Origin: Thermofilaceae archaeon
GTDB lineage: Archaea; Thermoproteota; Thermoprotei; Thermofilales; Thermofilaceae
Reading direction: 5' to 3'
DNA: 64,000 nt
NCBI GenBank assembly: GCA_038861545.1
Contig: JAWCCZ010000004.1
Location: 1 to 64,000 of the forward strand
Positions 34,344 to 56,450 of this stretch are shown here, piece after piece (position 1 is the stretch's first letter; each line of letters opens with the position of its first letter). The position numbers were made by a program, and so were the translations under genes. The notes under the pieces were generated by a model that saw only the letters and a program-made list of their open reading frames with translations, was not told where the DNA came from and ran no database searches.

Positions 34344-36551
34344 TTACATTACTAACGGCTCTACTTCAACTAAGATATTATGCGGTTCCAACCCTCTACG
34401 TAACACAGCCCGACCGCGAATCCCTCGACGGAACCAGGCTAGCTCGCCTGAACCCAGCGCCATGTAGATTTGGGTCATGGACACATAGTCGGGATCGCTA
34501 TGGCTTAGAGCAAGCTTCCAGCCAGCTGTCCTTCTGAAGCTTTCCGGCACATCCCCCCAGTCATGAGTAAGCAGTATCACGGCTAGTCCGAATTTTCTTA
34601 GCATCCTTGCCGTAGTAACCACCTCTGGTTCTAGGTAACCTTCAGGCGGTCTCATGAAGAGATGAGCTTCATCTACTATTAGGAGCCATCTTGGTTCGCT
34701 AAGGCCAAGCTTTAAGGCGTGGTCGCGCATTTGGGCTAGCGTCAAACCAAATGTGAACTGCTGTATTTCTAAAGGCATAGACTTATACTCACCTAAAGCA
34801 CTGCTACCCATGCAGAGCACTAGAGGGCGGTTCGCCTCAAGCAAGTAGCGCAAGCTAGTTACAGGTTTGCTGTAGTAGGGTTCTACACGTCTTAACTTCC
34901 ATGATAAACTAGAGTCTCTAGAATTTTGAATCAAGCTTACGAGATCCCTCACTCCGCTGTCTAAGCACCTTCGTAGGATTTCTACCTCGTAGTCGTTAAG
35001 CGGAGAAATGTACCTTATGGACTTCTCTAGATCCTCCAGCCTACACTCGAGCGGATCAATAGGTCTATCAGCTAGATCCACGATTTCGAAACCGTAGTAG
35101 TTTGCGAAAGCCCTGTATTCGCCTGAGGGATCAACTATAACTGGCACGATTCCCTGTTCAACAGCTCGAACTGCCAAAGCGCGTGCGGTAGTGCTTTTAC
35201 CTGAACCCATAGGTCCTACGATTAAACCATGAACGTTCTCCAAGGCGTCAATTTCCAGATATACTTTCTCGCTTTTACGTGTACCGCGACCCAGATAGAT
35301 AGCTCTAGGCGTTCTACGGGTAGCCGCTCTAACGAAGGCATAAGGTGACAGCCATGCAAGCTGGCTGCTAACTTGAAGGGAGGAGTTTGATCCTCCCGGC
35401 AACCCTAAAATTGCCCTGGCCAACTGTAAAACAGCCTTCCTACCAAATAAAGAATTGACCTGAAAGCTTTGCTTAAGTCCAATCGATTCAAGCCTCCATA
35501 CAGGTCCTTTTGAGAAAAATTCTACCCTAAATGGCATCTGTCCTTCTTCAACTGCTCTGTAAATCTTGAATACTGCAACCGCCTTAAATTCGTCGCTTAG
35601 CTTGCTAGCTCCAGCTCGGCCAGCTTCCAACACTTCTAAAGCCTTAGAGGCTTTAGCTTGAAGCTCTGCAAGATCCTGAGGAATTACTAAGGCTACTATG
35701 GGTTCCTCGTATTGTGTGAAAAGTCTCTGAAGAATCCTTAAGCTCGACCCAAGGCTCCCAGCTTCAGGAATATCATTGGTCAGGGAGCTTAGAGAAATCA
35801 GTGGCATAAAACGTAAAACTATTCTTCCGCCTTTGACAAGCTTAAGTTCTTCGAAGATTATTGGAATAGGAATTAAAATAATTAAGATAAGCCCGGGAGC
35901 TAGAAAGTAGAGTAAAATGAGTGTTAAGAGATTTGAGAGAAGAACGTAGGGTAATGTGAACCCGTAGTTGCTCTCCTCTAAAGAAACTAACTCGGGGAGA
36001 ACTTCTGAGGGATTAACTAGAGATGTATATACACCGTAAACAGTAAGTCGTCGCCTGATCTCGGATACAAGCTGGGAAAAACTACTTATCATTGCGTTTA
36101 AATCTTCTTTATAGATCGCATTTATTTTCAGGTAGTAACTATAATTTTCCCGGCGAGGGAGCGCGATCACGTTGAAAGTTGTATTAGGAATATGTAAAGC
36201 GGATATAACTCTGGAAGCTTCTTCGCCGAGCTTGATATCGCTGTCGTGGAAATCTATATCTATAACTTTTAAGAATGAACTTAATATGCAGAAATTTCTT
36301 TTCTTAAATGATATTATTACATAGTTTTTCTTAAAAATAAGTTTATCTAAATTTAATAAAAGTAAAGCCCTCTCCCCGTAGAGGATCTCTATTAATGTTT
36401 CCCTGTTCACATAAATAAAATAAAAACCAAATAAAGTAGCTAAAAAGGTTAAGGGAACAGGCGTACCGGAGGCAAGGGCTAAGAGCATCGCTAGCATTAA
36501 AGCGAAAAACAGGAGCATTTTTTCAAAGCCGGGCAAGTACATAAAAATCAC
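34344..36551 (-). CDS. membrane-bound VirB4/HerA-family ATPase (CedB/TedB-like)
   Basis: N-terminal and internal TM pairs; HGLIVGPMGSGKST, VIVDPSGEY, LLIVDEAH, RMLRKFGLAVILLTH. Confidence 0.88.
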   Translation of the reverse strand: MIFMYLPGFEKMLLFFALMLAMLLALASGTPVPLTFLATLFGFYFIYVNRETLIEILYGERALLLLNLDKLIFKKNYVIISFKKRNFCILSSFLKVIDIDFHDSDIKLGEEASRVISALHIPNTTFNVIALPRRENYSYYLKINAIYKEDLNAMISSFSQLVSEIRRRLTVYGVYTSLVNPSEVLPELVSLEESNYGFTLPYVLLSNLLTLILLYFLAPGLILIILIPIPIIFEELKLVKGGRIVLRFMPLISLSSLTNDIPEAGSLGSSLRILQRLFTQYEEPIVALVIPQDLAELQAKASKALEVLEAGRAGASKLSDEFKAVAVFKIYRAVEEGQMPFRVEFFSKGPVWRLESIGLKQSFQVNSLFGRKAVLQLARAILGLPGGSNSSLQVSSQLAWLSPYAFVRAATRRTPRAIYLGRGTRKSEKVYLEIDALENVHGLIVGPMGSGKSTTARALAVRAVEQGIVPVIVDPSGEYRAFANYYGFEIVDLADRPIDPLECRLEDLEKSIRYISPLNDYEVEILRRCLDSGVRDLVSLIQNSRDSSLSWKLRRVEPYYSKPVTSLRYLLEANRPLVLCMGSSALGEYKSMPLEIQQFTFGLTLAQMRDHALKLGLSEPRWLLIVDEAHLFMRPPEGYLEPEVVTTARMLRKFGLAVILLTHDWGDVPESFRRTAGWKLALSHSDPDYVSMTQIYMALGSGELAWFRRGIRGRAVLRRGLEPHNILVEVEPLVM

Positions 36552-36569
36552 TTGAGCTTTAGTTACCGG

Positions 36570-39500
36570 TTATGTCAACTCATGTTGCAATTCTTGGAGG
36601 AGGTTTTCACCTAACTCCCTAAGTTTACATGCGCTATCGCATAAACTTAAGAGCACGGCATCAAGTGATTGTATAATGTTCACCATGTCGTAGAGGTCTC
36701 TGAATAGCAGCTTTGACCTATATTCATAAGCCTCAATGCGAATAGCTCGGACTTTCTCTTCAACTTCTCTTGATATACGAACAGCTTCCTCCACGGTTTT
36801 GTAGACCTTCATTGTTTCTCTACGTTCGTAATCCCTAAGAGCCGGCGAGTGCCACGGTTGAAGCGGAATCATATAACAGTTTAAAAATTTCATAGCCTCT
36901 CCAAGGTTTTTAGCAGCCGCTACGCCTTCTCGACAGGCTCTAGCGACAAAGCGGCCGAAAACTGAGTATAATTCGTCAAAGGACTTCTCTAAACTTAGGC
37001 GAAATATCTGCTCGATTATCCATTGACCTCCACCTTCTTTAGATACTTTTGCTGATGCATATCCAAGCCAGTAAGGGTCTCCACTTAATATATAGAATTC
37101 CACGGCTTTCTTTGCGTCTACACCAGCTTTTTCGAAAGTTTTCCAAAAACCTTCAATAATTTTCAGTTCTTCACGAGATAAATAAAGTTCATTTACATCG
37201 TTGATAAAGAGCTGTAATGTCTCTAGAATACTATACAATTGGTCACTCTGTTTAACTTGATCCAGAGCCATTCTAAAACTTTTTAATAGTTTCTCGGTAC
37301 CGGGAGGTAATTCGCCCACAAACCAAGGTTTATGCCCCTTCATGGTCTCTTGAACTAATCTTAAAGCTAGGTAGCGCCAACTCTCTCCTTTTTCGAGCGA
37401 GGCAAGCCAGGTAACAGCGAGACTAAATCCAGTACCTAAAGTTTCGAGTAATTTCTCATCTACATTGACCTTGGAAAGCCCTGAGAACAACGCTGTTTTA
37501 ACTTCATCGTCCGGTCTGAATATTCCAAGTGAAGCTGAGTCGGCTACTCTTAGAGCAATTTCGGGTTTCTCGCTTAGCAATTTCAATGTCAGAGTGCTAG
37601 CGTTGCCTATAGCACATGTAACTAGCGCAACTCTCCATACAAGCTCCCCTACCTCCAGCTTATCTGGTTCTGTAACCAATGCAACTCGCATTACTGATGG
37701 GGGTACGGTTATCGTGGTAAGAGCTCTAAAAAATCTTTGTATATCCTTAGGTTTCGGTTTCCCTCCTTGAAGCACCGTTTTTGATATTATATCTGAATAA
37801 GTCTTTAGAGAATCGATCCCCCTACAGCCCCCCTTATTAAGTAAGCCTACCCTAGTGGGGATCATTGATGCAAGTTTCACCTCCTGTAAAGTTCTTTTTA
37901 CAAATTTTGAAGACAGTGGTGTTGCAAACGGCTTCATGTTAAGCATCCAGGCTACTGCGTATAGCATGTCGCTTGCCGCTAACAATTTACTACCAACTGG
38001 ATGAAGCAAAGCCGCGAATAGTCGCTCTTCGTCCCGGAGCAAGGGATTCGTAACTTTGAATGCTGCTCTCCGCAACAGCTCTCCAGCCATATATAGAATA
38101 AAAGGCAGGGGGTAGGATTGCCTATGTCTCCACATAAACCTCAACATAGATTTCCCTACATGCGTGATCCTACCTTTAGGTGAAGAATTGATAGTCGCGA
38201 GGGTGGCTCTGTGAAGTTCCTTTAACGTACGCATATTATCTTCTAACCTTTTTCTTAGATCATATAACTCGTAAAGGTGAGGGCCTACAGCCATGCGGGA
38301 TAAACTTCTTCCCCTCTTTGTATTAATTAACGATTCGATAAAACCCAGTGCTGCCCTACCAAAGTCCTCAAGCAGATGAATTGATTTACTCAGTGGAATT
38401 AGAGGAATAACTCCTTTTATTGCAGTACCGCCGAAAATCCAACTTAGCATGTCGACACCTACAAATGATGCAATTAACGCGCTAGCAATTAAAGCAAGGA
38501 GCGAGATTCCATTAATTATATCAAGGGTTTCTTCTTTAATCAAATTTACATATGAGGGCTGGATTATGTCCTCCAGTAAAGTATCATAAAATAGCCCTGA
38601 AACCACGGACTCATCGAGCACTGTAAAATTAGCTATAACCAATTCAGGCTCGCATGTGCCTATTCCGCTAACCAAGGGAAGAGGCACTGTAAAGGTTGAG
38701 GCACTGGACCCCGTAGTGATTGGTCCAACAATAGCTGGTCGAGTCACGTTTCCAAAATATCTGACATTAACAGTCACAGAAGCAACATTTGTTTTAGGCC
38801 ATAGACCTTGCGAATAGAGAAGACGTTTATTCCATAAAATAGCGTGAATTCCGGACTGGTTACCATATAGACACCGGTTAGTTTCCGGGTTAACCATTGA
38901 GAGAGGTAGAGAGGCGTTTAGCACTCGAGCATATTGATCAAACCACTTAATTGCCTCGATTCTAGAGTCGGAGAAGATAAAATATTTTCGTTCCACTTGA
39001 CAGCTGAAAGCTGGTATAACTTTTAGCTTTGAACCGTTAATTGTTATTTCGCTTTCACCAGCGTCTATGATTGTAGGTTTACCGTCCTGGCATATACCAT
39101 CTGCGTTAATATCACCTTCGATCCAGATGGTGACATCTGTAACTGTCACATTAAGAGAATCAACTGATCCTTTTTCACTCTCTGGGGAAAAATCGTCAAG
39201 GACTACGTTACTCTGTAGTATATTCACTAGGCCTATTCGTGGATCAGCTACACCCACTACTTCATGGTTTAACAAATAACCTCCAACGGGGTACCATGGT
39301 AGCGATTGCCCGTACCTTTCTGAGCCTTCGTAAAGGAAAAAGCCTCGGCCAACCCATACTCCCCAGCCCTTAGGTGGGCTACCGTTAAGCTGAGCATTAT
39401 CGCTAAAAGCTACAATACCTTTACTGACTTTTATGCACACTATCGTGCAATTCTTAGATGATGAGCAGAAGTTGCTCCATCGTAAAGCTCCTTCCTCAGT

Positions 39501-40436
39501 GTCAATTGCCTGAGCTGAGAATTCAATAGGAAAATTACAAGGTTTCACATGGAAAGTGATACCTTCAAATGGCACGCTCAACCCGGAATAATATAATCCG
39601 ATTACCTCGTACTGGTCCACATACTCCATATAAGGCACGCCCGCCTGTCTCGCTGCTATACGACCGCTCGAGCTTCTATATACTATGATAAAACCCGGTG
39701 GCGCTTTAACACTTAACTCCTTAACGTTAAGTGTCGTGCTTAAACTCACGACTGGTACTGTTAGTTCGACTTCAAATTTTAATATTCCAATTTCCTTTAC
39801 TACTTCTTTTACAGGCTTGGGCTTCACGGCTATTGCGATACAGTTAAGCACAAGAGGTATCAGCAGTCCAAAGCCTACTCCGAGGGCCACCAATGTTGCT
39901 CCGAATCTTCTCGTAGTCCGGGAAACTAGGAAAACGCCACCAGTTGTAATGAGGAGTGGATATAAAAAATCTCCTAGATCGGCCACTACCATGTAAACCT
40001 GGCCGATGAATCTAAATACTTGTAAAGAGAATAAAGATGCGTTAAGGATAGAACTTATAGTATTTATGCCTGCATATGATAGCGAAGCTATTAAAGCTAT
40101 TGTGCCCCCACTCATTATAGATGAAATCAAAACAACAGATAAAATAATAGAATTAAGAGTAGAAAAAGCCAGTGCTCTTTGAATATTTACAGACATTGCT
40201 TCTTCGCATGATTGTACCGCTTCCCTACCGAGCCTTCTTGTCAATTCACTGGAAAGAATAGAAAAATCAACTCCAGCTAGACTGGCAACAATTTCTGCAA
40301 TATTGAGAGTTGTTAAAACTACAGCTAAAACAAAGTAGCCTACTGCAACAGTTAAACGATCCTGCTCTTTTCTATATCTCCAGGCTATAAATGCTGCTTC
40401 CGCTAAAAGTACATAGCCTAGTATGTTTTTCCACAT
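36570..40436 (-). CDS. giant CedA/VirB6-like membrane protein
   Basis: N-terminal TM bundle with GGVFLVSRTTRRFGATLVALGVGFGLLIP, beta-rich middle region, a TM ending WIFGG, long helical C-terminus. Confidence 0.65.
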   Translation of the reverse strand: MWKNILGYVLLAEAAFIAWRYRKEQDRLTVAVGYFVLAVVLTTLNIAEIVASLAGVDFSILSSELTRRLGREAVQSCEEAMSVNIQRALAFSTLNSIILSVVLISSIMSGGTIALIASLSYAGINTISSILNASLFSLQVFRFIGQVYMVVADLGDFLYPLLITTGGVFLVSRTTRRFGATLVALGVGFGLLIPLVLNCIAIAVKPKPVKEVVKEIGILKFEVELTVPVVSLSTTLNVKELSVKAPPGFIIVYRSSSGRIAARQAGVPYMEYVDQYEVIGLYYSGLSVPFEGITFHVKPCNFPIEFSAQAIDTEEGALRWSNFCSSSKNCTIVCIKVSKGIVAFSDNAQLNGSPPKGWGVWVGRGFFLYEGSERYGQSLPWYPVGGYLLNHEVVGVADPRIGLVNILQSNVVLDDFSPESEKGSVDSLNVTVTDVTIWIEGDINADGICQDGKPTIIDAGESEITINGSKLKVIPAFSCQVERKYFIFSDSRIEAIKWFDQYARVLNASLPLSMVNPETNRCLYGNQSGIHAILWNKRLLYSQGLWPKTNVASVTVNVRYFGNVTRPAIVGPITTGSSASTFTVPLPLVSGIGTCEPELVIANFTVLDESVVSGLFYDTLLEDIIQPSYVNLIKEETLDIINGISLLALIASALIASFVGVDMLSWIFGGTAIKGVIPLIPLSKSIHLLEDFGRAALGFIESLINTKRGRSLSRMAVGPHLYELYDLRKRLEDNMRTLKELHRATLATINSSPKGRITHVGKSMLRFMWRHRQSYPLPFILYMAGELLRRAAFKVTNPLLRDEERLFAALLHPVGSKLLAASDMLYAVAWMLNMKPFATPLSSKFVKRTLQEVKLASMIPTRVGLLNKGGCRGIDSLKTYSDIISKTVLQGGKPKPKDIQRFFRALTTITVPPSVMRVALVTEPDKLEVGELVWRVALVTCAIGNASTLTLKLLSEKPEIALRVADSASLGIFRPDDEVKTALFSGLSKVNVDEKLLETLGTGFSLAVTWLASLEKGESWRYLALRLVQETMKGHKPWFVGELPPGTEKLLKSFRMALDQVKQSDQLYSILETLQLFINDVNELYLSREELKIIEGFWKTFEKAGVDAKKAVEFYILSGDPYWLGYASAKVSKEGGGQWIIEQIFRLSLEKSFDELYSVFGRFVARACREGVAAAKNLGEAMKFLNCYMIPLQPWHSPALRDYERRETMKVYKTVEEAVRISREVEEKVRAIRIEAYEYRSKLLFRDLYDMVNIIQSLDAVLLSLCDSACKLRELGENLLQELQHELT

Positions 40437-40437
40437 G

Positions 40438-41238
40438 TTAAACCCTCAGTCTAGCTATTAGTGACTCGGGTAAGCCACCAGCAGCGGTAACGGCTCCGAT
40501 ACTTAAGGCCGCGGCTACAGTAGTGGAAAGCGTGAACCACGCTACGCAATCTCCCATTGCTTTAGCATCGTTTATTACTTCTTCTACCGCCCCTGCAAAA
40601 TATTGCGCTATCCCTGCAATCGGGATTCCAATGTACTTGAACCTTAACTCAGCAGCTGCACTATTCAAGTAGGGCGCGGCTACACCTACATAGACCTGGA
40701 GAGTAACAATACTAATCGCTAATGTAGGGCCTACCCTTTTAAACCTACTTATTCCTGTTAATACGATACCTAGGCTAGCTAGCGGTGAACCATAGATAGA
40801 ACAGAGGCGCGAGGCAACAAGGAGCGCTGTGCTGACCGTCATTAGGTATGTAGCGAAAAAATTTGCTAGGCTGCAAGCTGCATGCCATGTAGCAGCTAAA
40901 GGAGCCAATATACCAGTCAATGTAATATCTCGGGCTACATTAGCTAAATCCATTACGTAAGTCGTGTACCTATCCCTCGTTTGAAGGCAAAGTTGCTCAG
41001 CTTCAGCTGGGGATACTGAAAATATACCAAAAGCCGAAAGTATTATCTGTGAAGAAAGCAGAATAGCAGCCAGGATAAGGCCTAAAACCGCACTTTCAAA
41101 GGCATCGTATATTGTGACAAACCCTTTAGCTTTAATCTGTGGTGAAGGATTACTCAAGAGCCATGCTCCATAGAGTACCTCTATTGCAATGAAGGCGAAT
41201 GTAAAACCATATGCTGTCAAATCTATGCTGACTACCAT
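40438..41238 (-). CDS. CedA/TedA (VirB6-like) polytopic membrane protein
   Basis: 266 aa, ~6 TM; GAWLLSNPSPQIKAKGFVTIYDAFESAVL and LGIVLTGISRFKRVGPTL resemble CedA-type patterns; sits between the pilin and VirB4 genes. Confidence 0.7.
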   Translation of the reverse strand: MVVSIDLTAYGFTFAFIAIEVLYGAWLLSNPSPQIKAKGFVTIYDAFESAVLGLILAAILLSSQIILSAFGIFSVSPAEAEQLCLQTRDRYTTYVMDLANVARDITLTGILAPLAATWHAACSLANFFATYLMTVSTALLVASRLCSIYGSPLASLGIVLTGISRFKRVGPTLAISIVTLQVYVGVAAPYLNSAAAELRFKYIGIPIAGIAQYFAGAVEEVINDAKAMGDCVAWFTLSTTVAAALSIGAVTAAGGLPESLIARLRV

Positions 41239-41283: not shown

Positions 41284-41667
41284 TCACGGCTGCATGAATA
41301 TTTCGTTCCAACTAACAGTGAAAGGAGTTCCTTGAGGTAATAGGCCTATTGACACTAGTATGTCAGGTAGCCAGGCTACTAAGGCTAGAGAAAGCAACCA
41401 AAATATTGGACCTTCTAGGGTTTCGTAAAGGTCTCTGAGAGCACTACCCGAGTACACGCCACCGACTTGCTTTTTAAGTCCAGCTATCGCCGCTCGTATT
41501 AGTGAAGCTAGGAAAACTAATAAACCTGTTATTGTTATTGCTAATTTAATAGTTAGAATTGCGTAGCTTTGTAAAGCGTTAATATTTACAATGGGACCTT
41601 GGGCTTGAATAAGAGGTAAAGTAAACAAAACAAATACAACAAAAACTGCAATTATATTGCCTTTCAT
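41284..41667 (-). CDS. VirB2-like conjugative-type pilin (TedC/CedA1-like)
   Basis: Signal peptide ending IQA|QG, then two hydrophobic helices joined by a short charged loop; context. Confidence 0.65.
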   Translation of the reverse strand: MKGNIIAVFVVFVLFTLPLIQAQGPIVNINALQSYAILTIKLAITITGLLVFLASLIRAAIAGLKKQVGGVYSGSALRDLYETLEGPIFWLLSLALVAWLPDILVSIGLLPQGTPFTVSWNEIFMQP

Positions 41668-41692: not shown

Positions 41693-42064
41693 TTAATTTT
41701 TCGATTGTTCTACAGGCATTATTTCCACGCAGTTCTTCTCGTTGCTGTAAAATATTCTCAACCGCACTCTACCTTTCGGTAAGGTATTTACACCTGTGTC
41801 TTTGCAAGCCTGATAGACCTTAATAGATAACCCGCATTCTTCTGAATATAATAAGATTGTATCCCCCTTCAATATATCTATCTTGGGTAAATCGTACACG
41901 TCGGTTATAGTACCTCTATTAATGGAAATGTATAGAAGGTCCCTTGACAATCTCCTGATATCTATGCATTTATCGTCTAATCTAAGGCTGAGCGCGTTAA
42001 TGGAGCTAATGGTGATACATACCATTGAAACCATGAAAACAATAAATAGAATTGCTTTCTCCAT
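41693..42064 (-). CDS. small protein with N-terminal TM, minor-pilin-like
   Basis: MEKA followed by a hydrophobic helix and a Cys-containing globular part. Confidence 0.6.
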   Translation of the reverse strand: MEKAILFIVFMVSMVCITISSINALSLRLDDKCIDIRRLSRDLLYISINRGTITDVYDLPKIDILKGDTILLYSEECGLSIKVYQACKDTGVNTLPKGRVRLRIFYSNEKNCVEIMPVEQSKN

Positions 42065-42074
42065 TTAACCACCT

Positions 42075-42698
42075 TTACGGAGGTATTCTTAAAATAATAC
42101 CAAATTCATCTCTCAGCTTAATCCGCTCTGGGACGCCGATTATCCACTTGCAGGGTCCATCTGGTTTTATATCAGCTATTTTCTCCGGGTCGGGGTGTAT
42201 AAGGGGGCATAGTGTAATATTAAAGAAAGGACTAACGTATCGGTGTATGTAGCTCACAGAAAAGCTGACCATATTGCATACTGCGCCCGAAATCGCTTTA
42301 ACGTATGTGTGTCCCTTGGTTACCCTTATCTCCACCTGAATCTTCACTTTAGTGTTTCCTGTTAGGGTTCTAACTTCGAAATCGGTTACATTAATTAGGT
42401 ATGTTGTCTCACCGTAGCTGAAGCGAAGTGTAGAGACGCTGAAGTTTGTAACTTCAAATAGTAGTAAGTTATAGCTTTCATTCATTGAATATAGTTGTTC
42501 AAGTAAGCTCTGGAGAACCTCGCTATTGCAGCTTTCTGTAGTTAGGCAAGCTCTTGCTAAGTGAACTAGCATTGCGGCCTGAAGATGCCCACGCTCGTAC
42601 ACGTAGATAGGCTCCTCCGGTAACGTTGAAACTATTGCAATGATTATTACAGCTAAAGCGGTAACGCCTAGTAAGGCAAACTGTGCTGTATGTTTCAT
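42075..42698 (-). CDS. minor-pilin-like protein
   Basis: MKHTA|QFALLGVTALAVIIIAIV resembles a class III signal; beta-rich body. Confidence 0.6.
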   Translation of the reverse strand: MKHTAQFALLGVTALAVIIIAIVSTLPEEPIYVYERGHLQAAMLVHLARACLTTESCNSEVLQSLLEQLYSMNESYNLLLFEVTNFSVSTLRFSYGETTYLINVTDFEVRTLTGNTKVKIQVEIRVTKGHTYVKAISGAVCNMVSFSVSYIHRYVSPFFNITLCPLIHPDPEKIADIKPDGPCKWIIGVPERIKLRDEFGIILRIPP

Positions 42699-42709
42699 CT
42701 AACCTCACC

Positions 42710-43039: not shown

Positions 43040-43158
43040 AGTAGGGTTTAACTTTTAAGTCGGTAACTAGAGTCGTAGAGGACATGAATACCTGAACTTT
43101 CAAACTTACCTAAATTGACTTTCTAGTTTTCCGCAATCGAAGCTTACCTAACGTGTAA

Positions 43159-47142: not shown

Positions 47143-50100
47143 TTAGAGTCTTGGGGGGTATCTTATTGGTAATGGAATTATTATATAAATCTTGTTGTAA
47201 TTAGAAAATATACCTGACACCGGCTTAAGATATGCTGCTATCCACTTTTCCCTAATACCTATTCCAATGTTTAGTTTATCTTTCGGAATCTTATCTTTAA
47301 AGTAAAATACTTTAACGAGTCTTCTTGATCCCTCTTTAATGTCCCATTCTTCAATCTCGATGATTATATCTGCGTGCCAAGGTGCTTCTCCCAGAAAACT
47401 TTCGCCTACGTTTCCACTCGTAAAACATTGCCAGCCAATGCTCAAGCTATCCGCTTCCCAATTCACTGATACCACAGTTGCTGGTACAAGGGTTACGTTT
47501 ACTGGAGCTGAAAGCTGATATTTAGTCAACCTAGCGCTTGAAGCGGTACCAAGGTTGTGTTGCCATCTGACCCAAATCTGGAAAGGCTGCATGTAGCTTC
47601 CGGTAGAGTTTTTCAAGCCTGCGGGATAGACCTTCTCGTAGAAAAGTAAACTGTCACCCAGGTTCAAGCTATAGGTAACACTATCCTCTCTAAGGCTTGT
47701 AGGCTGGTAGCTCCAAAAGCCTATTTCCCCCTTATATGATTCGAGTGATACTCCTAGCTCTTCTGTAGGTAAGCCTAGTGTCGCATTAACGCTGCTAGGC
47801 GGCTTGTACTTCCACATTAGTGTAACGTTTAACGATACTATAGTTGTTCTACGCCTTAGCTGTGGAGAATACTCTTCAAAACGGTATGATGGTGTTATAT
47901 TTACAATCTCAAGTTGCGAAACTACAACTGGCTGCCGGATCTTTAACCCACTGTCTAAGTGATGGAAAATTAAGTTATATACAGCGTAAGTTACGTTGCC
48001 AATCCAAAGCTGCGACGCATCTACGGTTGAGCTTGCCTGGCTAAGTACAGCTTCTGGGTTCCATGCAACTAATGCCAGAAAATACCAATTTTTGTATAAT
48101 GATGGTATATTACCGTCTATTATTTGAGGGAAAATACCTATGCTACTTGCATTCCATTTAACCACGCACTTCGAACCAGTACACGTCTCACAAGAATCCG
48201 CTACTCTACTCCAGTCTACGGTCATGTTTACTTTCAACCAAGAAAATGGAACGTAAACAACCTCTGAACCATTAGTTAACATGACATAAATTTTGGCACT
48301 ATTATCGGTTACTCTATCAGGGTAGAAAATTGTTACATTTACCATCCACAGCCCAGATAATCCCCATATTCTATTCAGTAAAGGATTTGGTAAACCTTCA
48401 CCTGGTAGGAATATCGATCGATTTGTCAGAAGCATAGGTGAATGGTAAACATAACCTTCGGGAGCGTAACAGGCGGTAATAGTAGTTACGTTACTGGGGC
48501 GTAATCCAAATATTGTACTCCCCTTCACCTCTTGACCGTTAACGTCCCAATACTTTAAAACGAAATTCGTTGAATTCAGCTTAATCACTGACAGGTTTAC
48601 CTTACCTGTACTCCCACTATTATAGATTGTTATATAGCCATTAATATTTATATTCAATGCCGTCTTTGTAGTCCAACGAGTTGAGCCGCTACTTAAGTCG
48701 GTGATCAGGGCAGAACACCTCCAAAGCGGTGCATCCGGAGAAGGGCATATATAAACGTCTATGTCGGGGTTATTCCAAGAGGATCCTATCTTTATCACGC
48801 TGGCTGTCACGTCGTATGTTCCAGAGAAATACTGATTCCATCGATAAATCCCTCTTCCTAGCGTGATGTCTAAGACCCCCTCTAGAATCCTCACTGTAGC
48901 AGTTATCTGTAGGGGAGCAGTGAACATGTACCTGTTACTTACAACGAAACCTTGAGTATTGGAACCGTTTAAGCAAAGTAGAGGAGACACGTAAACGTCG
49001 TCCACTACGCCCTGCAACTGCACCATATCGTTCACCCAAGAGTTCTCAGGTAATGGTGTTAAGATGCGAGCTCGGAGCAACATATTAGGCTCGTATTTGT
49101 AAGCAGCTAAGGTTCCAACAATATAGTTTGCTGTGACACCGCCGGTAACTGTAGCATCCTCCACAAAACCTGTCCAATACCATTGGCTCGGAGATGATAG
49201 TCGAGCGTAACCTGTCCACCACCCTGCGAACTTATAGCCCGGCGCGGGCTGCGCTATGGCGGCATAGGCTGTCATAGCGGTACTAGACCAGCTGCGCACT
49301 CTTATACGGATAGGTTCATTTTTCAACTCTATGTCTAAGCTCTTAACCTCTAAGTCCATGGATCCCTGGTGATAGGTTAACTGGAGCCACCCGTTGCGGG
49401 TGCCTTTCTCGACCCATAGGTCGCCGATACCTTCAGCCTTGTAGTAAACCCTGTAAATGCCCGTCAGGTTAGCCGTGCTCATGGACGCTGTTCCCAGATA
49501 ATTGCGTGTCTTAACGAAGGAAACGTTGCCAGCTAAGCCTCCATTACCGTAAACTGAGTTGAAGGAGTGTGTCCACCCCACATTTAGCGCGGCGTAAGGC
49601 TTAGCATCCGGGTTAACAGTGATCGTGTACAAGTAACTAGAAGCAAGAGATACATTATAAGGGTAGTAGAGAGAGTAGGGACCAACTACTCGAGTATGAA
49701 ACATACCCGTTATAGGTACAATTAACTGTTGATATCTGCTCGGTGGGCTACTTTCACTTACTCTAGGATAATAGGCGCCGGTTACCCAAAACATAGCGGA
49801 ACCTATATCACCGTCTCCTGAGCCCACCTCTCTAATTCCTCCGCCCATGTATACGAATCCCTGAACTTTCCCATAATAGACAGTATAGTACATGGTAGCG
49901 CCTGTCCATCCACAGCCCACGACAGGGATACCAGAGCTCAGTTGTGCTGAGGGCCCGGCGAAACTGTACTGGTACTCAGGTGGATATAAATATACAGTGT
50001 TGTCCGTATCCGGCTGTGTAGGTGGTTTAATCGTCGGATTGTTATTATGGCCTCCAGTAGTTCCACTTTCCCAGCTAAGTGTGCACTCACAACTCTTATT

Positions 50101-50514
50101 ACCGTTCCAGCTCCAGAGGGAATTTACATAACTATGATCCGGATATAGCCAATACCACCATTTGATGTACATTTTCAGGTAATTGTAAGGTTGCCACATA
50201 CCATTATATGGCACGCTACCTTCGTAACGGTACTTTAAAGCCGCTATTGTCGGGCCTTTCTGTGAATCGTAGTCCCTAGGTATAGTGCCCCGCACACCTA
50301 TTCCGTGGACATCTTCTACCACTTCACCGTCATACCGGACGGAACAGTAGGTTGTAGAGCAACTGCTCAAAGCGATATCAGCGTCCCACCAATCCGGGTA
50401 TCCACAGAAACTGGTATTAGAGCAGTAGGGTGTTGATCTAACCTCCTTCACAGTCATATAATAGATCAAGAGAAGCATCAAAGCCAGTAAGGCTAACTTA
50501 TGTAACTTCATCAT
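47143..50514 (-). CDS. large secreted adhesin-like protein
   Basis: Signal peptide; Y/W/T/S/G/N-rich beta composition; many NxS/T sequons; one AQPAPGYKFAGWW repeat-domain motif. Confidence 0.75.
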   Translation of the reverse strand: MMKLHKLALLALMLLLIYYMTVKEVRSTPYCSNTSFCGYPDWWDADIALSSCSTTYCSVRYDGEVVEDVHGIGVRGTIPRDYDSQKGPTIAALKYRYEGSVPYNGMWQPYNYLKMYIKWWYWLYPDHSYVNSLWSWNGNKSCECTLSWESGTTGGHNNNPTIKPPTQPDTDNTVYLYPPEYQYSFAGPSAQLSSGIPVVGCGWTGATMYYTVYYGKVQGFVYMGGGIREVGSGDGDIGSAMFWVTGAYYPRVSESSPPSRYQQLIVPITGMFHTRVVGPYSLYYPYNVSLASSYLYTITVNPDAKPYAALNVGWTHSFNSVYGNGGLAGNVSFVKTRNYLGTASMSTANLTGIYRVYYKAEGIGDLWVEKGTRNGWLQLTYHQGSMDLEVKSLDIELKNEPIRIRVRSWSSTAMTAYAAIAQPAPGYKFAGWWTGYARLSSPSQWYWTGFVEDATVTGGVTANYIVGTLAAYKYEPNMLLRARILTPLPENSWVNDMVQLQGVVDDVYVSPLLCLNGSNTQGFVVSNRYMFTAPLQITATVRILEGVLDITLGRGIYRWNQYFSGTYDVTASVIKIGSSWNNPDIDVYICPSPDAPLWRCSALITDLSSGSTRWTTKTALNININGYITIYNSGSTGKVNLSVIKLNSTNFVLKYWDVNGQEVKGSTIFGLRPSNVTTITACYAPEGYVYHSPMLLTNRSIFLPGEGLPNPLLNRIWGLSGLWMVNVTIFYPDRVTDNSAKIYVMLTNGSEVVYVPFSWLKVNMTVDWSRVADSCETCTGSKCVVKWNASSIGIFPQIIDGNIPSLYKNWYFLALVAWNPEAVLSQASSTVDASQLWIGNVTYAVYNLIFHHLDSGLKIRQPVVVSQLEIVNITPSYRFEEYSPQLRRRTTIVSLNVTLMWKYKPPSSVNATLGLPTEELGVSLESYKGEIGFWSYQPTSLREDSVTYSLNLGDSLLFYEKVYPAGLKNSTGSYMQPFQIWVRWQHNLGTASSARLTKYQLSAPVNVTLVPATVVSVNWEADSLSIGWQCFTSGNVGESFLGEAPWHADIIIEIEEWDIKEGSRRLVKVFYFKDKIPKDKLNIGIGIREKWIAAYLKPVSGIFSNYNKIYIIIPLPIRYPPRL

Positions 50515-50545
50515 AGAATAAAAAAATTTTAGAGAATAAAAACTT

Positions 50546-52033
50546 TTAGCTTTCCCATTCCACGACTTCTATTTTAACGTACATAGTTCCATAGGACGTA
50601 ATAAGAAGCCAACCCTCCTTAATCCCTTCAAGTAGCCTGTATGATGGTCCACCCTGTGCTTGTCCACAGGATCTAGGTATCCCGTTCTCTAAGCCAAACT
50701 CGCATTTGATATATTTATTATACTCTGGCGAGGAAAATGGGTCGTAGCCAGGCACGTTCCAAGCCTTCAAGGCTTCCCTATCAAACAACACCACTACGTA
50801 GCCTGTTCCGTACACGTTACCTGTGGGGAGGACGTAACGGCCACATGCAAGGGTATCCGCTACGTTTCTTATGACCATCATAATGTATGAGTCGGCTATC
50901 TTACTGGGCGTGGTCGTGAGGTTCGCATATACTCTAATTTTTCTCCAGCCTTCTGGTGGCTCGATAAAAACACTTACCCTACCGCCTTCAAGCTTTAGGA
51001 CTCCATTACCTAGATACTCATACTCACCGATGAACGGGACTATCATCCACCTATCCCCGGGGATAACCGGAGCTTTTACCATTGTTCCATTAGGTGTAAG
51101 TATTTCTGTGTATTTGATTGGATACACTAGCTTCGTGTAGACAACCACCTGCTCTAGTTCTAAATCTTCCATTGCGGTTACATGAAGCCTTGGACTTGGC
51201 CACTCGCCTTTATTCACGAGCCAGGAGACAAGGCAAACTAAGTGAGTTTCATTAAAAAACACACAACCCCTTCTATCAGATCCATACGGCTCAACCGATA
51301 TAGTAGCGTTTAGCTTTACACGGAGAGATGCATCTTGTGTGCATGGGATTCTACTCATGTTCCCATTTGTAGTTATAGTGATGTTCACCGGCACGAGAAC
51401 CCTCTTCAATGTAACTAAAACCTTCGCTTTAACGAAATTAAATAACTCTGTCTTGTTGTCTTCAACCAACACTAGTAAAGTACCCCAAGGCCACTCCCAG
51501 CCTTCAGGTGGCACAGGTTTAATCTGCAACACGCTACAGGCAGGAACTTCAACTTCCACGGGCAGTATAAACAGGGACTTGTTCACCATCAGCAAACTCC
51601 CTTTAACGTTAGACTTGAAAACAACCCTATACCTGGACTTTTCGAAAACTGCTTCAACAGTAGTATTACCCCTTACATAAAGCCGGAGTTCTGGCATTGT
51701 GTCGTAAATTGTACCATTCACCAACCACCACTTAAAAGCCCAGCACCTCCTTGGCTGAGCTCGAAATTCCAGTAAAAAAGGTTCTGTAGAGTTTACCAGT
51801 GTAATCTCGCTACCATTCACCAATACTTTACCTTCTCCCTCTGAAATTATAAAAACGAAAAATGGTCTCGATTGGGTTGACTTCTCAACATTTGAAATTT
51901 CAGAACTTTCCGAGAACCCTACAGATCCCTCCTCTCTTAACAAGAATATAGATATAGTTATTCCAATGATCACTACAACTGCTGCTAATGCTACTTTGAC
52001 ACTTTTTTCTAACTTAATGCGTTTATATTTCAT
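50546..52033 (-). CDS. membrane-anchored surface protein with InlB-B/Flg_new-like repeat domains
   Basis: ATG 52033 after GGGGAGGG; N-terminal TM; GEGKVLVNG...AQP...WAFKWWLVNG...GNTTVEAVF. Confidence 0.75.
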   Translation of the reverse strand: MKYKRIKLEKSVKVALAAVVVIIGITISIFLLREEGSVGFSESSEISNVEKSTQSRPFFVFIISEGEGKVLVNGSEITLVNSTEPFLLEFRAQPRRCWAFKWWLVNGTIYDTMPELRLYVRGNTTVEAVFEKSRYRVVFKSNVKGSLLMVNKSLFILPVEVEVPACSVLQIKPVPPEGWEWPWGTLLVLVEDNKTELFNFVKAKVLVTLKRVLVPVNITITTNGNMSRIPCTQDASLRVKLNATISVEPYGSDRRGCVFFNETHLVCLVSWLVNKGEWPSPRLHVTAMEDLELEQVVVYTKLVYPIKYTEILTPNGTMVKAPVIPGDRWMIVPFIGEYEYLGNGVLKLEGGRVSVFIEPPEGWRKIRVYANLTTTPSKIADSYIMMVIRNVADTLACGRYVLPTGNVYGTGYVVVLFDREALKAWNVPGYDPFSSPEYNKYIKCEFGLENGIPRSCGQAQGGPSYRLLEGIKEGWLLITSYGTMYVKIEVVEWES

Positions 52034-52150
52034 CCCTCCCCAGTAACATGGAATATAAGCCGGCATGTCTAAGACCCTTACATGCAATTAATAAAAATAA
52101 ATATCAGAGTTATATAAAAATTTTGGAACTAAGTGAACAATCCATATATA

Positions 52151-52185: not shown

Positions 52186-52605
52186 ATGACCAGAAGAAGT
52201 GGTGGAGTGCCAGGAATCGTGACGGTGATCATAACTATTGCATCAATAGCGGCAGCGGCGCTTGTTGCGTACTTCATGTATACTACAACTAGAAGTGCGA
52301 CTAGCCAACCGATAATAGAGGTAACCTCTGCTTACGCGAGCGGCTCTAATCTGGCTCTAACTATCAGGAACCTTGGATCCGTAGACGTTACGATTACAGA
52401 TGCTTCAATAGTCATTAGGGATATCAGTTGTGTGGCACAAAATGCAAATAAACAACTAGCTAAAGGAAGTAGTATAGTAGTATCTGCTTCTTGTAGCTCA
52501 TTAGCTTTAAGTGATGGTGACAGTGGTTACGTCACGTTGTCCGGAACCACACAAAATAATTTAGCTTTCAGCATAACTATAGGCTTCAGAGTAGTTGTAC
52601 CTTAG
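52186..52605 (+). CDS. archaeal type IV major pilin
   Basis: Basic leader MTRRSGG, hydrophobic helix VPGIVTVIITIASIAAAALVAYFM, LTIRNLGS motif, Ser/Thr-rich beta domain. Confidence 0.85.
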   Translation: MTRRSGGVPGIVTVIITIASIAAAALVAYFMYTTTRSATSQPIIEVTSAYASGSNLALTIRNLGSVDVTITDASIVIRDISCVAQNANKQLAKGSSIVVSASCSSLALSDGDSGYVTLSGTTQNNLAFSITIGFRVVVP

Positions 52606-52654
52606 CGTTGATTTAGCGTAATAAATTAATATAAGTAATTTCTTTTTTACCATA

Positions 52655-53872
52655 ATGAAATTAAATAAATGGATCCGATCCGAAGTTGATGCTATACCTT
52701 TAGCTCTTATAATGCTTTCTTCACCTCAACTACCTTTAACCACCTTAAGGGAGTTGAAAAAAGTTGGCTTTGATTACTTACCCGATCCTGAGGAACTCAT
52801 ATCCGGTTACGCTAAACTAAACTGGCTATCCGAGAGAATGAAGAAAATTCTAGATGGCGCTATTAAAGCTCAGCTTTCCGGTAATCGTAACTCTTTAGAG
52901 GAAAAACTAAAGGATATACTAGCTGAGCTTTCAACAACTCTTGAAACAACCGATCATAACATCTCTAACCTTTACAGCCTTGTTTCAACGTTTACGAGTA
53001 CAGTCCCAGTAACTATAGTAGCAACGCAAGCTCTGCTCGGTGGAGGTGGAACCGCAACTGCTCTAAGTATGGCATTCATTGGTTTAATTATTGCTATGCT
53101 AGTTGGCTTCTGGGCTTTCCCCTGGGAGTTCGGTATATCTACACCTAAGCTGCAGACTTACGCGTTGCTACTACTGATCATGCCTTCTTACCTTCTTTTT
53201 AACTGTTTCAGCATACCCAATCCCTTTCTGCTTTCTCTTGCACTTGGATCCGCGCCTAGCGCTGCTTTCCACCTGCACCACACATTAAGTGAACTCAAAA
53301 AAATGGATAAATCTAGGGAATTGATCCGCGTGGCGGCACGAGCTATAGGCAATCCTTACTTAGCACTCGCTAGAGAGAAACTTTTAAAGGATCCGGAAGA
53401 GCTGTTGAATCAGGAGTGGAAAGGCTTCAGCAAAGCTGCTACGCTGGGCCTATGGCAGGTTCTCTTGCATGGTGGTTACGAGAACCTGCAGAAGTTGGAT
53501 GATTATGTTTCTAAAGTACTAGAGTTCACTAAACGGCTACGCTCAAAGACTAGAATCTTCCTAGTGTATGCGATTATTGAAGCCGCGATAGTAGCAGCGA
53601 TTTACGCGGTGATCCTCGGCATTGAACCGCTGTTTACGGAAGGGGGAGAATGGATGATTAAAGCTGGGATCAGTATATTGGGTTTAAGAGAACTAAGAGA
53701 AAATATTGACCAGATACTTTCTCTAAATGCACTTACATTAGCGGTAGCCACTGCGAGTGCCCGCGAGGGAAGACCCCATTTGCTTACCATGTACCTCCCT
53801 CTAATCGCCGGTATTGTGTGGTTTTTCTGGCTTATCTCCTCTACGCTTACGCCATTGCTAGTGGGTGGTTAG
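52655..53872 (+). CDS. TadC/T2SS-F-like pilus platform membrane protein
   Basis: Two soluble helical segments, each followed by TM clusters; directly downstream of the pilin. Confidence 0.62.
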   Translation: MKLNKWIRSEVDAIPLALIMLSSPQLPLTTLRELKKVGFDYLPDPEELISGYAKLNWLSERMKKILDGAIKAQLSGNRNSLEEKLKDILAELSTTLETTDHNISNLYSLVSTFTSTVPVTIVATQALLGGGGTATALSMAFIGLIIAMLVGFWAFPWEFGISTPKLQTYALLLLIMPSYLLFNCFSIPNPFLLSLALGSAPSAAFHLHHTLSELKKMDKSRELIRVAARAIGNPYLALAREKLLKDPEELLNQEWKGFSKAATLGLWQVLLHGGYENLQKLDDYVSKVLEFTKRLRSKTRIFLVYAIIEAAIVAAIYAVILGIEPLFTEGGEWMIKAGISILGLRELRENIDQILSLNALTLAVATASAREGRPHLLTMYLPLIAGIVWFFWLISSTLTPLLVGG

Positions 53873-54235
53873 GTGAAAGTTGATGCCGTTGTAACAATTT
53901 TCACAGCTGTATTAGCAGTAACGTTAATTCTAACTGCTTATTCTAAATACAATTCACTACAAGTTGAGGCCTACAACTGTTATGGAATAGCTCAATATAT
54001 AGCTAAGCATATTGCAAGAAAACTGGTTGAAGGAGAATCTCTTAATCTTGCTTCTTTGAAGGGGTGGGAAGTCTACATTTACTATTCCAACGGTACTGTA
54101 TGCCACTACGCGCTTAACATAATCCTGTGTGAACATGTAAATAACTTTAAACCTCAAAGCAAGTATAGGTGTTACACGTACTTCCTCGCTAGCGATAACT
54201 CTCCACAGCCCGTACTAGTAGAGGTGAGGGGATGA
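53873..54235 (+). CDS. minor-pilin-like protein
   Basis: MKVDAVVTIFTAVLAVTLIL N-terminus, Cys-containing body; abuts the TadC-like stop. Confidence 0.6.
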   Translation: MKVDAVVTIFTAVLAVTLILTAYSKYNSLQVEAYNCYGIAQYIAKHIARKLVEGESLNLASLKGWEVYIYYSNGTVCHYALNIILCEHVNNFKPQSKYRCYTYFLASDNSPQPVLVEVRG

Positions 54236-54248
54236 ATGTACCCAGATT

Positions 54249-54284
54249 TGGGTCTTTAGACCCATTAATGGGTCTAAAGACCCA
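54249..54284. repeat. perfect 36-bp palindrome made of two 16-bp palindromes; candidate centromere/operator
   Basis: TGGGTCTTTAGACCCA-TTAA-TGGGTCTAAAGACCCA, intergenic, ending 46 nt before the wHTH start. Confidence 0.92.
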
Positions 54285-54330
54285 GCATTGATGCAAACCT
54301 TCATAAGCAAGTATAGGAAAAAGAGGGGAA

Positions 54331-54663
54331 ATGAGCGAGTGTGATCCAAGCTTAATTACACGTTCACTGCTTGAAGAGGGAATGTACCAGCACATTGCAG
54401 TTCTGGTTCTTCTTTATAGGGAGAAAAATAAAAATAAAGATGAAATCATGATGAGTGACCTAAGGTATTTGCTTGGGAGTGGAAAATATCTTGCAAGCAA
54501 TAGGTATGCCGAATCAATAGTTAAAGATTTAAAAAATTTAGGTTTATTAAACGAAAAAAAAGTTAAAAAATTTAGATTTTTAAGTTTGACAAGATGTGGT
54601 GAGGAGGTTTCTAAACTATTAAATAATTTGATAGAGGATGTTGAACGATCTTCAAACCCTTAA
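54331..54663 (+). CDS. winged-HTH DNA-binding protein (AspA/PadR/MarR-like)
   Basis: IVKDLKNLGLL...FLSLTRCGEEV wing; lies between the palindrome and parB. Confidence 0.8.
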   Translation: MSECDPSLITRSLLEEGMYQHIAVLVLLYREKNKNKDEIMMSDLRYLLGSGKYLASNRYAESIVKDLKNLGLLNEKKVKKFRFLSLTRCGEEVSKLLNNLIEDVERSSNP

Positions 54664-54702
54664 GGGGAAAGTTTTAATAAGTTCGTTATGTATTTAATAC
54701 TC

Positions 54703-55608
54703 ATGGAACAGGTAACCTTTATACCTTTAGATAAGTTAGTGCCTTCATCAGTTAACGTGCGAGTATATGTTGACCAGCTAAGGGTCCGTGATTTAGCAGA
54801 GAATATCTCGGTAAATGGACTCCTCCACCCTTTGGTAGTGAGGCCAGAGGGGAAAGTTTACGGGATAATCTGCGGGCGGATGAGGTTCGAGGCAATAAAG
54901 TTGCTGCATGAAGAAAGCCCTGAAATCTTTACGAAACTATTCTCAAACGGGGTTCCATGTTTTGTTAAAGAGCTTTCTGATAGAGAAGCTGTCGAATTAT
55001 CTCTCAGTGAAAACCTGCGTCAGAACAATCTAACACCTGAGGAAGTTGGTAGAGCAGTAGCCAGACTTTACGAGCAAGGGCTTGAGGAGGAAGATATTAG
55101 AAGGAGAGTGCAGCTACCTTTAGAGGATATTAAGAGATTTGTGAGGCTCTATGCGAGGCTTCGAGAAATTACGCCATTCACTGCAGAATCGAGGCCCGGT
55201 AGACCTTCACCGAGGAGACGTAGGGTAAGCAGAACCGGTATGGAGAAAGTTGTCCGTGTAGTGGAAAACCTGGAAAGACAAGGATTGGTGGAGAAGCCGG
55301 AGGAGGTTACCAGGAAACTTGCTGAAATAGCTTCTGAAAAAAAGCTGAGTACAAGTGAACTTGAGATACTGGCGCATAAGCTGCGCGAAAAGCCAGAGCT
55401 AGTGAGAAAACCGGAAGAACTGAGCAGATTAGCGGACGAGATAGCTGGTGAAGAGATGGTTGAGCGAATAGTATTGCTGAGGAGAAAGGTGATAGACGAT
55501 GTTAGCGAGTATGCAAAACTTAAAGGATTAACTTTCAACGAAGCGGTTAACGAGCTTCTCGAACGCGCTTTATCCCGAATACGCCATGAGCAGTTTAGCG
55601 TTCACTAA
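54703..55608 (+). CDS. ParB/Srx-domain protein with C-terminal RHH-like segment
   Basis: LAENISVNGLLHPLVVR, ICGRMRFEA, SLSENLRQNNLTPEE; ATG 54703 fits the TTTTAATA box at 54672-54679. Confidence 0.9.
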   Translation: MEQVTFIPLDKLVPSSVNVRVYVDQLRVRDLAENISVNGLLHPLVVRPEGKVYGIICGRMRFEAIKLLHEESPEIFTKLFSNGVPCFVKELSDREAVELSLSENLRQNNLTPEEVGRAVARLYEQGLEEEDIRRRVQLPLEDIKRFVRLYARLREITPFTAESRPGRPSPRRRRVSRTGMEKVVRVVENLERQGLVEKPEEVTRKLAEIASEKKLSTSELEILAHKLREKPELVRKPEELSRLADEIAGEEMVERIVLLRRKVIDDVSEYAKLKGLTFNEAVNELLERALSRIRHEQFSVH

Positions 55609-55613
55609 ACTGC

Positions 55614-56450
55614 GTGGTTTTCTTGGCCAAAGGTGTCGAGTTTCTATTAGAATTGCTAGACAATGGAAGGCAGCTCACAATAATAGGATTACCGGGAGCC
55701 GAGCGAGCTGCTTTCTTATCTTCGATTATTCAAGCAGCATTTAGCGGTAAGTATGACATATTAGTGCTTGACTGGTACGGCAACCTTGCTGGATTAAACC
55801 TCCCCTCAGCAGGCTTCGCTCTACCCTACACCGCTATCCGCCCATACATCCATCGTGCTCTTTCAACGCCACCAGATCTGCGATCAAGCTCTGCAACTTT
55901 GGAGGCTGTAATAACTGAATGCGTCTCTGAAGCGACAAATTTGCAGCAAGCACTTTCAAGCCTATTAACTAAAAGTAGTGTAAACCCTGCGTCAAAGCTT
56001 GCATATTTAAGATTCCAGAGCATTTTGGCATACATTTCAGATATTGAAAACATGCAAACACATGCTTACGTTGATCTATCAAAAATACCTATTTTGGTTA
56101 GAGGCGTGATGCTACAGCTGTGGATAGCCTTCGCTCATCACCTTCTCTTAAGCAACCGACCGCTTAAGAAACAACTACTCGTGGTTGAGGAGGTGGGACG
56201 GGCACTTAGAAAAAGTGTATGGGTATGGGACTTAATCGATGAGATGACAGTGCGTGGAGTACGTTTAATATTAACTGACCAATACGTCAGAAGATCGTAC
56301 CTTAACTCTGTACTGGTGATTGTAAACATGAGCAACGAGACCCTTTACTCTACTATGCGATTTAGGATCCAGCTACCCATGATACCTAAGAGAACTGGTG
56401 AAGCAGTAGTAGTCGATGGAGCGGAACATTACACCGTACACTTCAGTTAG
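55614..56450 (+). CDS. degenerate (Walker A-dead) HerA/VirB4-like ATPase
   Basis: TIIGLPGAERAAF, LVLDWYG, YVDLSKI, LLVVEEV, RGVRLILTDQ, GEAVV. Confidence 0.72.
   Translation: MVFLAKGVEFLLELLDNGRQLTIIGLPGAERAAFLSSIIQAAFSGKYDILVLDWYGNLAGLNLPSAGFALPYTAIRPYIHRALSTPPDLRSSSATLEAVITECVSEATNLQQALSSLLTKSSVNPASKLAYLRFQSILAYISDIENMQTHAYVDLSKIPILVRGVMLQLWIAFAHHLLLSNRPLKKQLLVVEEVGRALRKSVWVWDLIDEMTVRGVRLILTDQYVRRSYLNSVLVIVNMSNETLYSTMRFRIQLPMIPKRTGEAVVVDGAEHYTVHFS

Follow-up and report, generated by a model that had tools for sequence, protein, structure and literature searches.

The stretch of DNA considered here, which we call the window, covers the opening 64 kb of a contig of 253 kb (JAWCCZ010000004.1) of a Thermofilaceae archaeon whose genome (G000, with G001 as its sister genome) amounts to 1.63 Mb and is 92% complete. 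Positions 34344 to 56450 hold a block of genes in which a putative DNA channel of the Ted type, a type IV pilus and a set of partition-like genes lie side by side. Every open reading frame (ORF) listed in a preliminary description of this block, made from the sequence alone, was found there, and its parts list proved essentially right, with caveats attached to the TadC-like protein, the minor pilins and the adhesins. The features are as follows.

34344-36551, minus strand: TedB/VirB4-like membrane-anchored ATPase, 735 aa (DUF87 E 7e-11; HHalign TedB P 99.5)
36570-40436, minus strand: giant TedA/VirB6 paralogue, 1288 aa (HHalign and structure model)
40438-41238, minus strand: TedA/CedA/VirB6-like channel protein, 266 aa (HHalign TedA P 99.1)
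41284-41667, minus strand: TedC/VirB2-like pilin with cleavable signal peptide, 127 aa (HHalign, helical hairpin model, position)
41693-44065, minus strand: five minor-pilin-like genes of 123, 207, 109, 107 and 197 aa (N-terminal hydrophobic helix, gene order)
44310-44660, plus strand: small cytoplasmic protein with a coiled coil (in most relatives its gene separates those of ParA and the pilus ATPase)
44677-46176, plus strand: type IV pilus assembly ATPase, Thermofilales clade (T2SSE E 9e-13)
46163-46411, plus strand: lysine-rich small ORF, 82 aa (60% identical in G001; relatives also have small charged ORFs within their pilus runs)
46382-47065, minus strand: ParA/MinD-family ATPase (CbiA E 7e-4; deviant Walker A intact)
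47143-52087, minus strand: two large putative adhesins, secreted or anchored, of 1123 and 513 aa (part of the conserved pilus module)
52186-52605, plus strand: major type IV pilin with class III signal peptide (UpsA model E 1e-4; leader motif conserved)
52655-53872, plus strand: TadC-like platform protein, 405 aa (multiple transmembrane (TM) helices; adjoins the pilin in most relatives)
53873-54235, plus strand: sixth minor-pilin-like gene, 120 aa (after TadC in most relatives)
54249-54284, no strand: 36-bp perfect palindrome, probable operator of the winged-helix protein (two 16-bp palindromic sites 20 bp apart)
54331-54663, plus strand: winged helix-turn-helix (wHTH) DNA-binding protein (PDB matches to wHTH proteins)
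54688-55608, plus strand: ParB, 306 aa, with Spo0J-like N-domain carrying a GxxR motif, helix-turn-helix and probable C-terminal ribbon-helix-helix
55614-56450, plus strand: degenerate small HerA (TedD-like), 278 aa, without a working Walker A (HHalign, tree)
56460-56535, minus strand: tRNA-Arg(CCT), 9 bp beyond the last gene, unmentioned in the preliminary description

By sequence comparison, the channel half is the Thermofilales form of the Ted system. The profile of the 266-aa membrane protein (TedA) matches in 36 of the 120 genomes of the class, including 25 of the 41 in the order, and in G093 a weak match immediately follows an ORF whose product matches TedC, the pilin of solved structure (PDB 8DFT), which identifies the G093 locus as the published Ted locus; the probabilities given here (P, in per cent) are from HHalign comparisons against families built from loci like this one. 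G093 alone is anchored in this way, and the names Caldivirga, Vulcanisaeta and, for most genomes, Pyrobaculum are those that we presume for the relatives concerned. Against TedA the 266-aa protein reached P 99.1 (E 9e-19, 238 columns) and is homologous to Pcal_0766, and against Thermoproteales TedB the 735-aa ATPase reached P 99.5 (E 1e-22) over 346 columns that include the pre-ATPase region; this ATPase has intact Walker A and B motifs, finds VirB4 (4AG5) as its best PDB match and falls in the TedB-containing half of the ATPase tree. The weakest of the Ted matches is that of the 127-aa pilin to TedC (P 90, E 2e-6, only 39 columns), for which a first comparison with a shallow TedC profile gave P 18, P 90 being reached with deeper alignments. 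This pilin is modelled as a helical hairpin and stands before tedA, the same position as in Ted; its profile found no match among PDB sequences, and a non-discriminating fold search returned generic helical hairpins only, TedC not being listed. The relationship of the membrane proteins to Ted, VirB6 and VirB2 that the preliminary description had proposed is thus borne out, and of its broader term, a Ced/Ted-like channel, the Ted part holds and the Ced part does not, as the window protein scores far below the cut-offs for CedB (34.8 bits, cut-off 700) and CedD (29.3 bits, cut-off 600). The locus holds a homologue of the second ATPase, TedD/HerA, with a degenerate Walker A in place of an active one; TedD/HerA is an accessory feature outside the 2023 definition of Ted. 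In one of the Ted lineages the N-terminal membrane part of TedB is a protein separate from the soluble ATPase, and the pilus ATPase gene is followed by one for an XPD-like helicase (L029, L032, L083, L084, L085).

The giant 1288-aa protein encoded next to tedA consists of a TM bundle, an extracellular beta insert of about 400 aa, a TM helix and a helical tail of about 600 aa, and it matches both the giant ORF that follows tedA in Pyrobaculum (P 94.6) and the TedA family (P 93.9). Residues 1-700 were modelled (mean pLDDT 72) as a helical bundle broken by a 400-residue beta region, and this model aligns with VirB6 of R388 (7O3V_F) at Z 9.2 and a root-mean-square deviation of 4.9 over 204 of 261 residues, spanning the insert; the Z score falls in the range of generic helical matches and it is the coverage that is distinctive. 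Foldseek and Atlas feature searches with the outer domain yielded nothing usable, and the best Atlas fold match of the protein is an unnamed 311-aa archaeal protein that covers the TM part. In Pyrobaculum the gene after tedA encodes a TedA paralogue of 4,400-5,058 aa (L067, G093:C1:722415-737591; also G097 and G112), of which no discussion was found in the part of the Ted paper available to us. We regard the giant VirB6 paralogue as an overlooked candidate for a partner-recognition factor.

The pilus half comprises an assembly ATPase, a platform protein assigned by context and topology, and a class III pilin, and it belongs to a module that recurs across the order in similar gene order: ParA, the coiled-coil protein, the ATPase, one or more major pilins, the TadC-like protein, two large secreted proteins and six single-helix proteins. 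Matches to the ATPase better than E 1e-60 are limited to Thermofilales and one other family, and its clade is nearly confined to the order. The major pilin, which has up to four paralogues in relatives, matches the UpsA model at E 1e-4 with 22.5 bits, far below the cut-off of 130. The 405-aa protein has no Pfam match and is most readily read as TadC from its position, TM pattern and family context; the two large proteins match no family and are presumed to be adhesins. Each of the six minor-pilin-like proteins has one N-terminal hydrophobic helix, and a clear class III site occurs only in the 207-aa family, and there in relatives. Their genes keep the same order in pilus loci with and without ted, and because the module is also present where tedA was not found (for instance in G023, G024 and G008), these small proteins belong to the pilus rather than to the channel. 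In some relatives the 107-aa gene has a long extension at its C-terminal end or finds matches inside the large adhesin (L015, L004, L093; G017:C6:26719-29007; G020:C2:268562-271894), which hints that the tip modules may vary. A role of the pilus-type ATPase as a VirB11 for the channel was considered and set aside, since its cognate TadC and pilin persist in all five of the split-locus genomes tested; a dual role, serving both pilus and channel, may nevertheless apply.

The two halves are repeatedly found together in relatives: the pilus module accompanies ted across five Thermofilales families, with pilus genes directly adjoining ted genes in 19 of the 25 tedA-bearing Thermofilales genomes. 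The pilus core shares one cluster with ted in ten of the 25 (G000, G001, G006, G007, G017, G019, G025, G026, G029, G030); in four, minor pilins stand directly before tedC at a contig end (G002, G009, G012, G015); and in five, ParA, the coiled-coil gene and the ATPase lie head to head with tedC while TadC and the pilin are 28-56 kb away (G011, G014, G016, G018, G022). ParA alone is kept beside ted in a further two. In G019 the genes from ParA through tedB form one co-directional run, of which the arrangement in the window is an inverted derivative; the single block of about 22 kb described earlier is therefore contiguous in its genes and is not a single operon, inversions having broken the run. 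The TedA and TedB trees contain two old Thermofilales lineages, one with mostly fused and the other with mostly split TedB, and both are pilus-linked; the pilus-ATPase tree has groups matching those of the TedA tree, an agreement judged by eye on quick trees. Both Ted paralogue lineages occur in the complete genome G006, where each has a pilus ATPase of its own and where two XPD-like helicase genes similar to one another are also present (G006:C1:1190656-1198813, 1378452-1403322). Outside the order, two genomes that we take to be Vulcanisaeta (G078, G081) have ParA, a pilus ATPase, a protein of 4-5 TM helices and a pilin between tedB and tedC-tedA, with RadA next door, and G058 has a looser cluster of the same kind; in the tree the Vulcanisaeta pilus ATPase is distant from the Thermofilales clade. 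That ted stays linked with a type IV pilus across Thermofilales suggests a pilus dedicated to cell contact, for a lineage from which none had been known.

Several points weigh against such a joint function. DNA transfer has been experimentally demonstrated for no Ted system, its assumption resting on Ced. Because of the kinship among the linked genomes, 19 of 25 does not represent 19 independent events and should not be taken as a statistical test, and the agreement of the trees is also expected from plain vertical descent. Four of the 25 genomes have no adjacent pilus gene (two of these at contig ends), the same pilus module occurs in about ten genomes (57-95% complete) in which tedA was not detected, and the ted loci of Pyrobaculum, Caldivirga and two other Vulcanisaeta lack the pilus ATPase and TadC, with ParA kept in three of the four groups. 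These observations could be accommodated if a general adhesion pilus, for attachment to surfaces or to a host, and an independently working Ted channel were simply neighbours with separate jobs, joined by inheritance and shared regulation only, the more so as Ted pili have been proposed to form mating pairs directly (PMC11823120). We consider this arrangement unlikely: the ted and pilus genes are interleaved in one run, the ParA-ATPase unit remains with ted when TadC and the pilin move off, both Ted paralogue lineages show the linkage, as does Vulcanisaeta, and G000 carries two further, unrelated pilus systems that would be available for general adhesion.

The partition-like genes had been assigned a larger role in the preliminary description, in which ParB and the wHTH protein bring a specific DNA site to the channel. 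More fully stated, the wHTH protein and ParB would capture a centromere-like site and, by way of ParA and the dead ATPase, deliver DNA to the channel, replacing the relaxosome. There are attractive features to such a scheme. ParB (Spo0J E 7e-27; an intact N-domain with ParB family E 1e-11; a weak ParG match, E 0.09, at its C-terminus) is the most conserved gene of the locus (dN/dS, the ratio of nonsynonymous to synonymous substitution rates, 0.054), and in G019, G017 and G009 the wHTH-ParB pair lies head to head with ParA across a palindrome. Precedents include AspA-ParB-ParA (PMC5120986), the VirC1 role proposed for the ParA of Ted (PMC9905601) and the reported requirement for ParA and ParB in T4SS (type IV secretion system) DNA secretion by gonococci (PMC8716806). 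Nevertheless, close homologues of ParB occur in 20 of the 41 genomes of the order and were found neither in four complete Ted-bearing genomes nor in any of 60 Thermoproteales genomes, and in G020, G024 and G033 ParB adjoins the pilus where tedA is far away (140 kb) or was not found. ParB thus follows the pilus rather than the channel, and the proposed delivery of a DNA site does not hold up well.

The palindrome points in the same direction. Perfect palindromes of at least 34 bp number only four in the 1.63-Mb genome, that at 54249-54284 included; its motif is found nowhere else in this genome and is retained in that of the sister, G001. In G019 the divergent wHTH and ParA genes are separated by a 36-bp palindrome of another sequence, and G026 has repeated 16-bp palindromes. 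The sequence thus changes between genera, and the site lies in a promoter region, a pattern that probably reflects an operator co-evolving with its wHTH protein. The best PDB matches of the latter are AF1382 (E 1e-5) and other wHTH proteins, which confirms its fold, and in the sequence search AspA was not among the PDB matches at E<1. AspA binds upstream of its own gene too (PMC5120986), so that a centromere role for the palindrome may keep some place. As to the dead ATPase, it matches the small HerA of ted loci at P 94.6 and falls on a long branch in the TedD-like half of the ATPase tree; it is confined to two genera and frameshifted in G001, which argues against an essential adaptor. An intact 356-aa small HerA-type ATPase is encoded on another contig (G000:C3:71399-72469) and could replace the dead copy. 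Taken with a site that is single in the genome, we judge relaxosome-like delivery by these proteins to be decidedly improbable. ParA is shared by pilus and ted loci: its neighbour is the pilus ATPase in relatives and tedB in Pyrobaculum and Vulcanisaeta. A 1033-aa DEAD/DEAH helicase (59031-62132 in the window) stays near ParB in two genera, and the Sulfolobus ups cluster is likewise flanked by ParB-like and helicase genes.

Is the locus, alternatively, a conjugative element (a plasmid or an integrative and conjugative element (ICE), with its T4SS, pilus and partition cassette), immobilised or still mobile, that serves its own export? The locus is abutted by the 3' end of the tRNA-Arg gene, and its GC content of 0.38-0.47 contrasts with 0.46-0.51 in the left flank. 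The parts list also resembles that of bacterial IncI-type plasmids, which we count in favour of such an element. Likewise, in genomes of Pyrobaculum, Thermoproteus and Vulcanisaeta-like archaea (G094, G112, G084, G062; L108, L110, L118, L120, L164, L165, L167) the ted loci have a patchy distribution, occur in several copies and are in part broken, which suggests that some of these copies are still mobile, and the second copy in G006 can be read in the same sense. On the other hand, low GC extends beyond the tRNA, no att repeat or duplicate of the tRNA-Arg end was found, no relaxase or replication gene is among the ORFs of the locus, and no integrase lies near it, the sole PF00589 match in the genome being on another contig in a search of the tyrosine type only. 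The flanking genes on the ParB side are common to two genera (to the right of the locus lie the tRNA-Arg gene, a GH5 hydrolase and a DEAD-box helicase, to the left a uroporphyrinogen-decarboxylase-like gene), and tedA is present in 19 of the 23 genomes of the family. All 14 of the locus genes tested are under purifying selection (dN/dS 0.05-0.24 against G001, with synonymous sites near saturation). The earlier view of the locus as chromosomal accordingly stands; an origin from a plasmid or ICE is likely, the locus here behaves as chromosomal, and self-export by a conjugative element is in our estimation quite improbable. Just past tedB lies a GC-rich non-coding element (34097-34233) that is conserved, with 88% identity in G001 and 71-74% in four genomes from a different genus. 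It begins with motifs resembling box C/D, after which comes a long hairpin with ACA at its end; without a match in Rfam, it is a candidate for a fused C/D plus H/ACA guide RNA.

We therefore favour, with moderate confidence, the reading of this locus as a domesticated chromosomal Ted-type DNA-exchange system with its own contact pilus, a parallel of Ced plus Ups. In such a system the major pilin would be assembled by the ATPase and TadC into a type IV pilus bearing the minor pilins and adhesins at its tip or base, and this pilus would catch kin cells as Ups pili do in Sulfolobales. TedB and TedA would assemble a hollow TedC pilus or channel, and the giant TedA paralogue would act as an extended VirB6 whose fast-evolving outer domain might stabilise or select the partner. 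Single-stranded chromosomal DNA would pass without a relaxase, its import being assumed by analogy with Ced, and would then serve homologous recombination, a use that agrees with the presence of RadA, XPD-like and HerA genes in the loci of relatives. ParA would position pilus and channel, the wHTH protein would bind the palindrome mainly as a regulator, and ParB would serve the pilus module as an accessory, its probable source being the partition cassette of a plasmid. The description of the locus as a self-contained machine was overstated: RadA or XPD-like genes in many relatives' loci, and an active HerA in relatives, are all absent from the window. No TFB gene was found near the locus in the five genomes searched. 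We further speculate, though we hold it unlikely, that one operon encoded the whole ancestral mating machine of Thermoproteales and Thermofilales: a type IV contact pilus, a Ted channel whose giant VirB6 recognised the partner, enzymes of recombination, and a ParB/ParA/wHTH unit with a CTP clamp, by which, instead of a relaxosome, the chromosome was tethered to the mating site.

According to current models, Thermoproteales-type archaea have no equivalent of Ups, pairing being perhaps by Ted pili alone (Recalde 2025; PMC11823120), and the locus offers a concrete candidate for a contact pilus. It extends Ted to Thermofilales and gives a likely purpose to a pilus clade that was unexplained in 2016. 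Cultured strains presumably carry the full or split locus, which makes the idea approachable without genetics.

Parts of this arrangement have been glimpsed before. Beltran 2023, which established Ted from five genera of Thermoproteales, recorded that the loci also hold ParA, HerA and a recombinase, its text making no mention of Thermofilum or of a linked pilus, and Wu 2025 reported VirB4 and CedD in Thermofilales in one sentence. Makarova 2016 (PMC4858521) described 4G pilus loci in Vulcanisaeta and Caldivirga with two extra membrane proteins (arCOG10497/10500), as well as an ATPase that is specific to Thermofilum and has no associated pilins; judged by their size and gene order, not by alignment, the former appear to be TedA and TedC, and the latter is probably the ATPase beside ted. 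The linkage was thus half-seen in 2016 and 2023; a literature search covering openly readable text found only three papers on Ted and no description of its linkage with a type IV pilus.

With the Ted system (PMC9905601, PMC11823120) the locus shares the tedC-tedA order, a pilin with a signal peptide, a full VirB4-like ATPase, ParA and a small HerA in the locus, a RadA-like gene nearby in relatives and the absence of a relaxase; it differs in adding a complete type IV pilus module and wHTH-ParB, in its dead HerA, and in belonging to an order absent from the text of the published Ted survey. Subclade 4G of type IV pili, together with the Thermofilum ATPase clade (PMC4858521), has in common with it a MinD/FleN ATPase, a small cytoplasmic protein, a diverged ATPase and TadC, two large secreted proteins, several minor pilins and two membrane proteins, although Makarova 2016 drew no link to DNA transfer; given the distance of the Vulcanisaeta ATPase from the Thermofilales clade, orthology with 4G is no more than tentative. 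AspA-ParB-ParA of pNOB8 (PMC5120986) resembles it in the palindrome before the wHTH gene, the adjacent ParB and, in relatives, the adjacent ParA. There is, however, no sequence match to AspA or to the pNOB8 ParB, which has 470 aa and a CenpA-like C-domain as compared to the 306-aa, Spo0J-like ParB of the window with its probable ribbon-helix-helix tail, and the overlapping aspA-parB-parA operon is absent, ParA of the window being divergent or separated and part of the pilus unit. Finally, Ced plus Ups of Sulfolobales, where DNA exchange needs both a type IV pilus and Ced (PMC9905601, PMC11868833), shares a VirB2/VirB6/VirB4-like channel, two VirB6 paralogues (CedA and CedE), a type IV pilus and a ParB-domain gene in the Ced model (PMC11868833). 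In Sulfolobales, however, ced lies apart from ups, the ATPases CedB and CedD are split and no signal peptide is present on the Ced pilins, whereas the pilus encoded in the window is accompanied by many more accessory genes.

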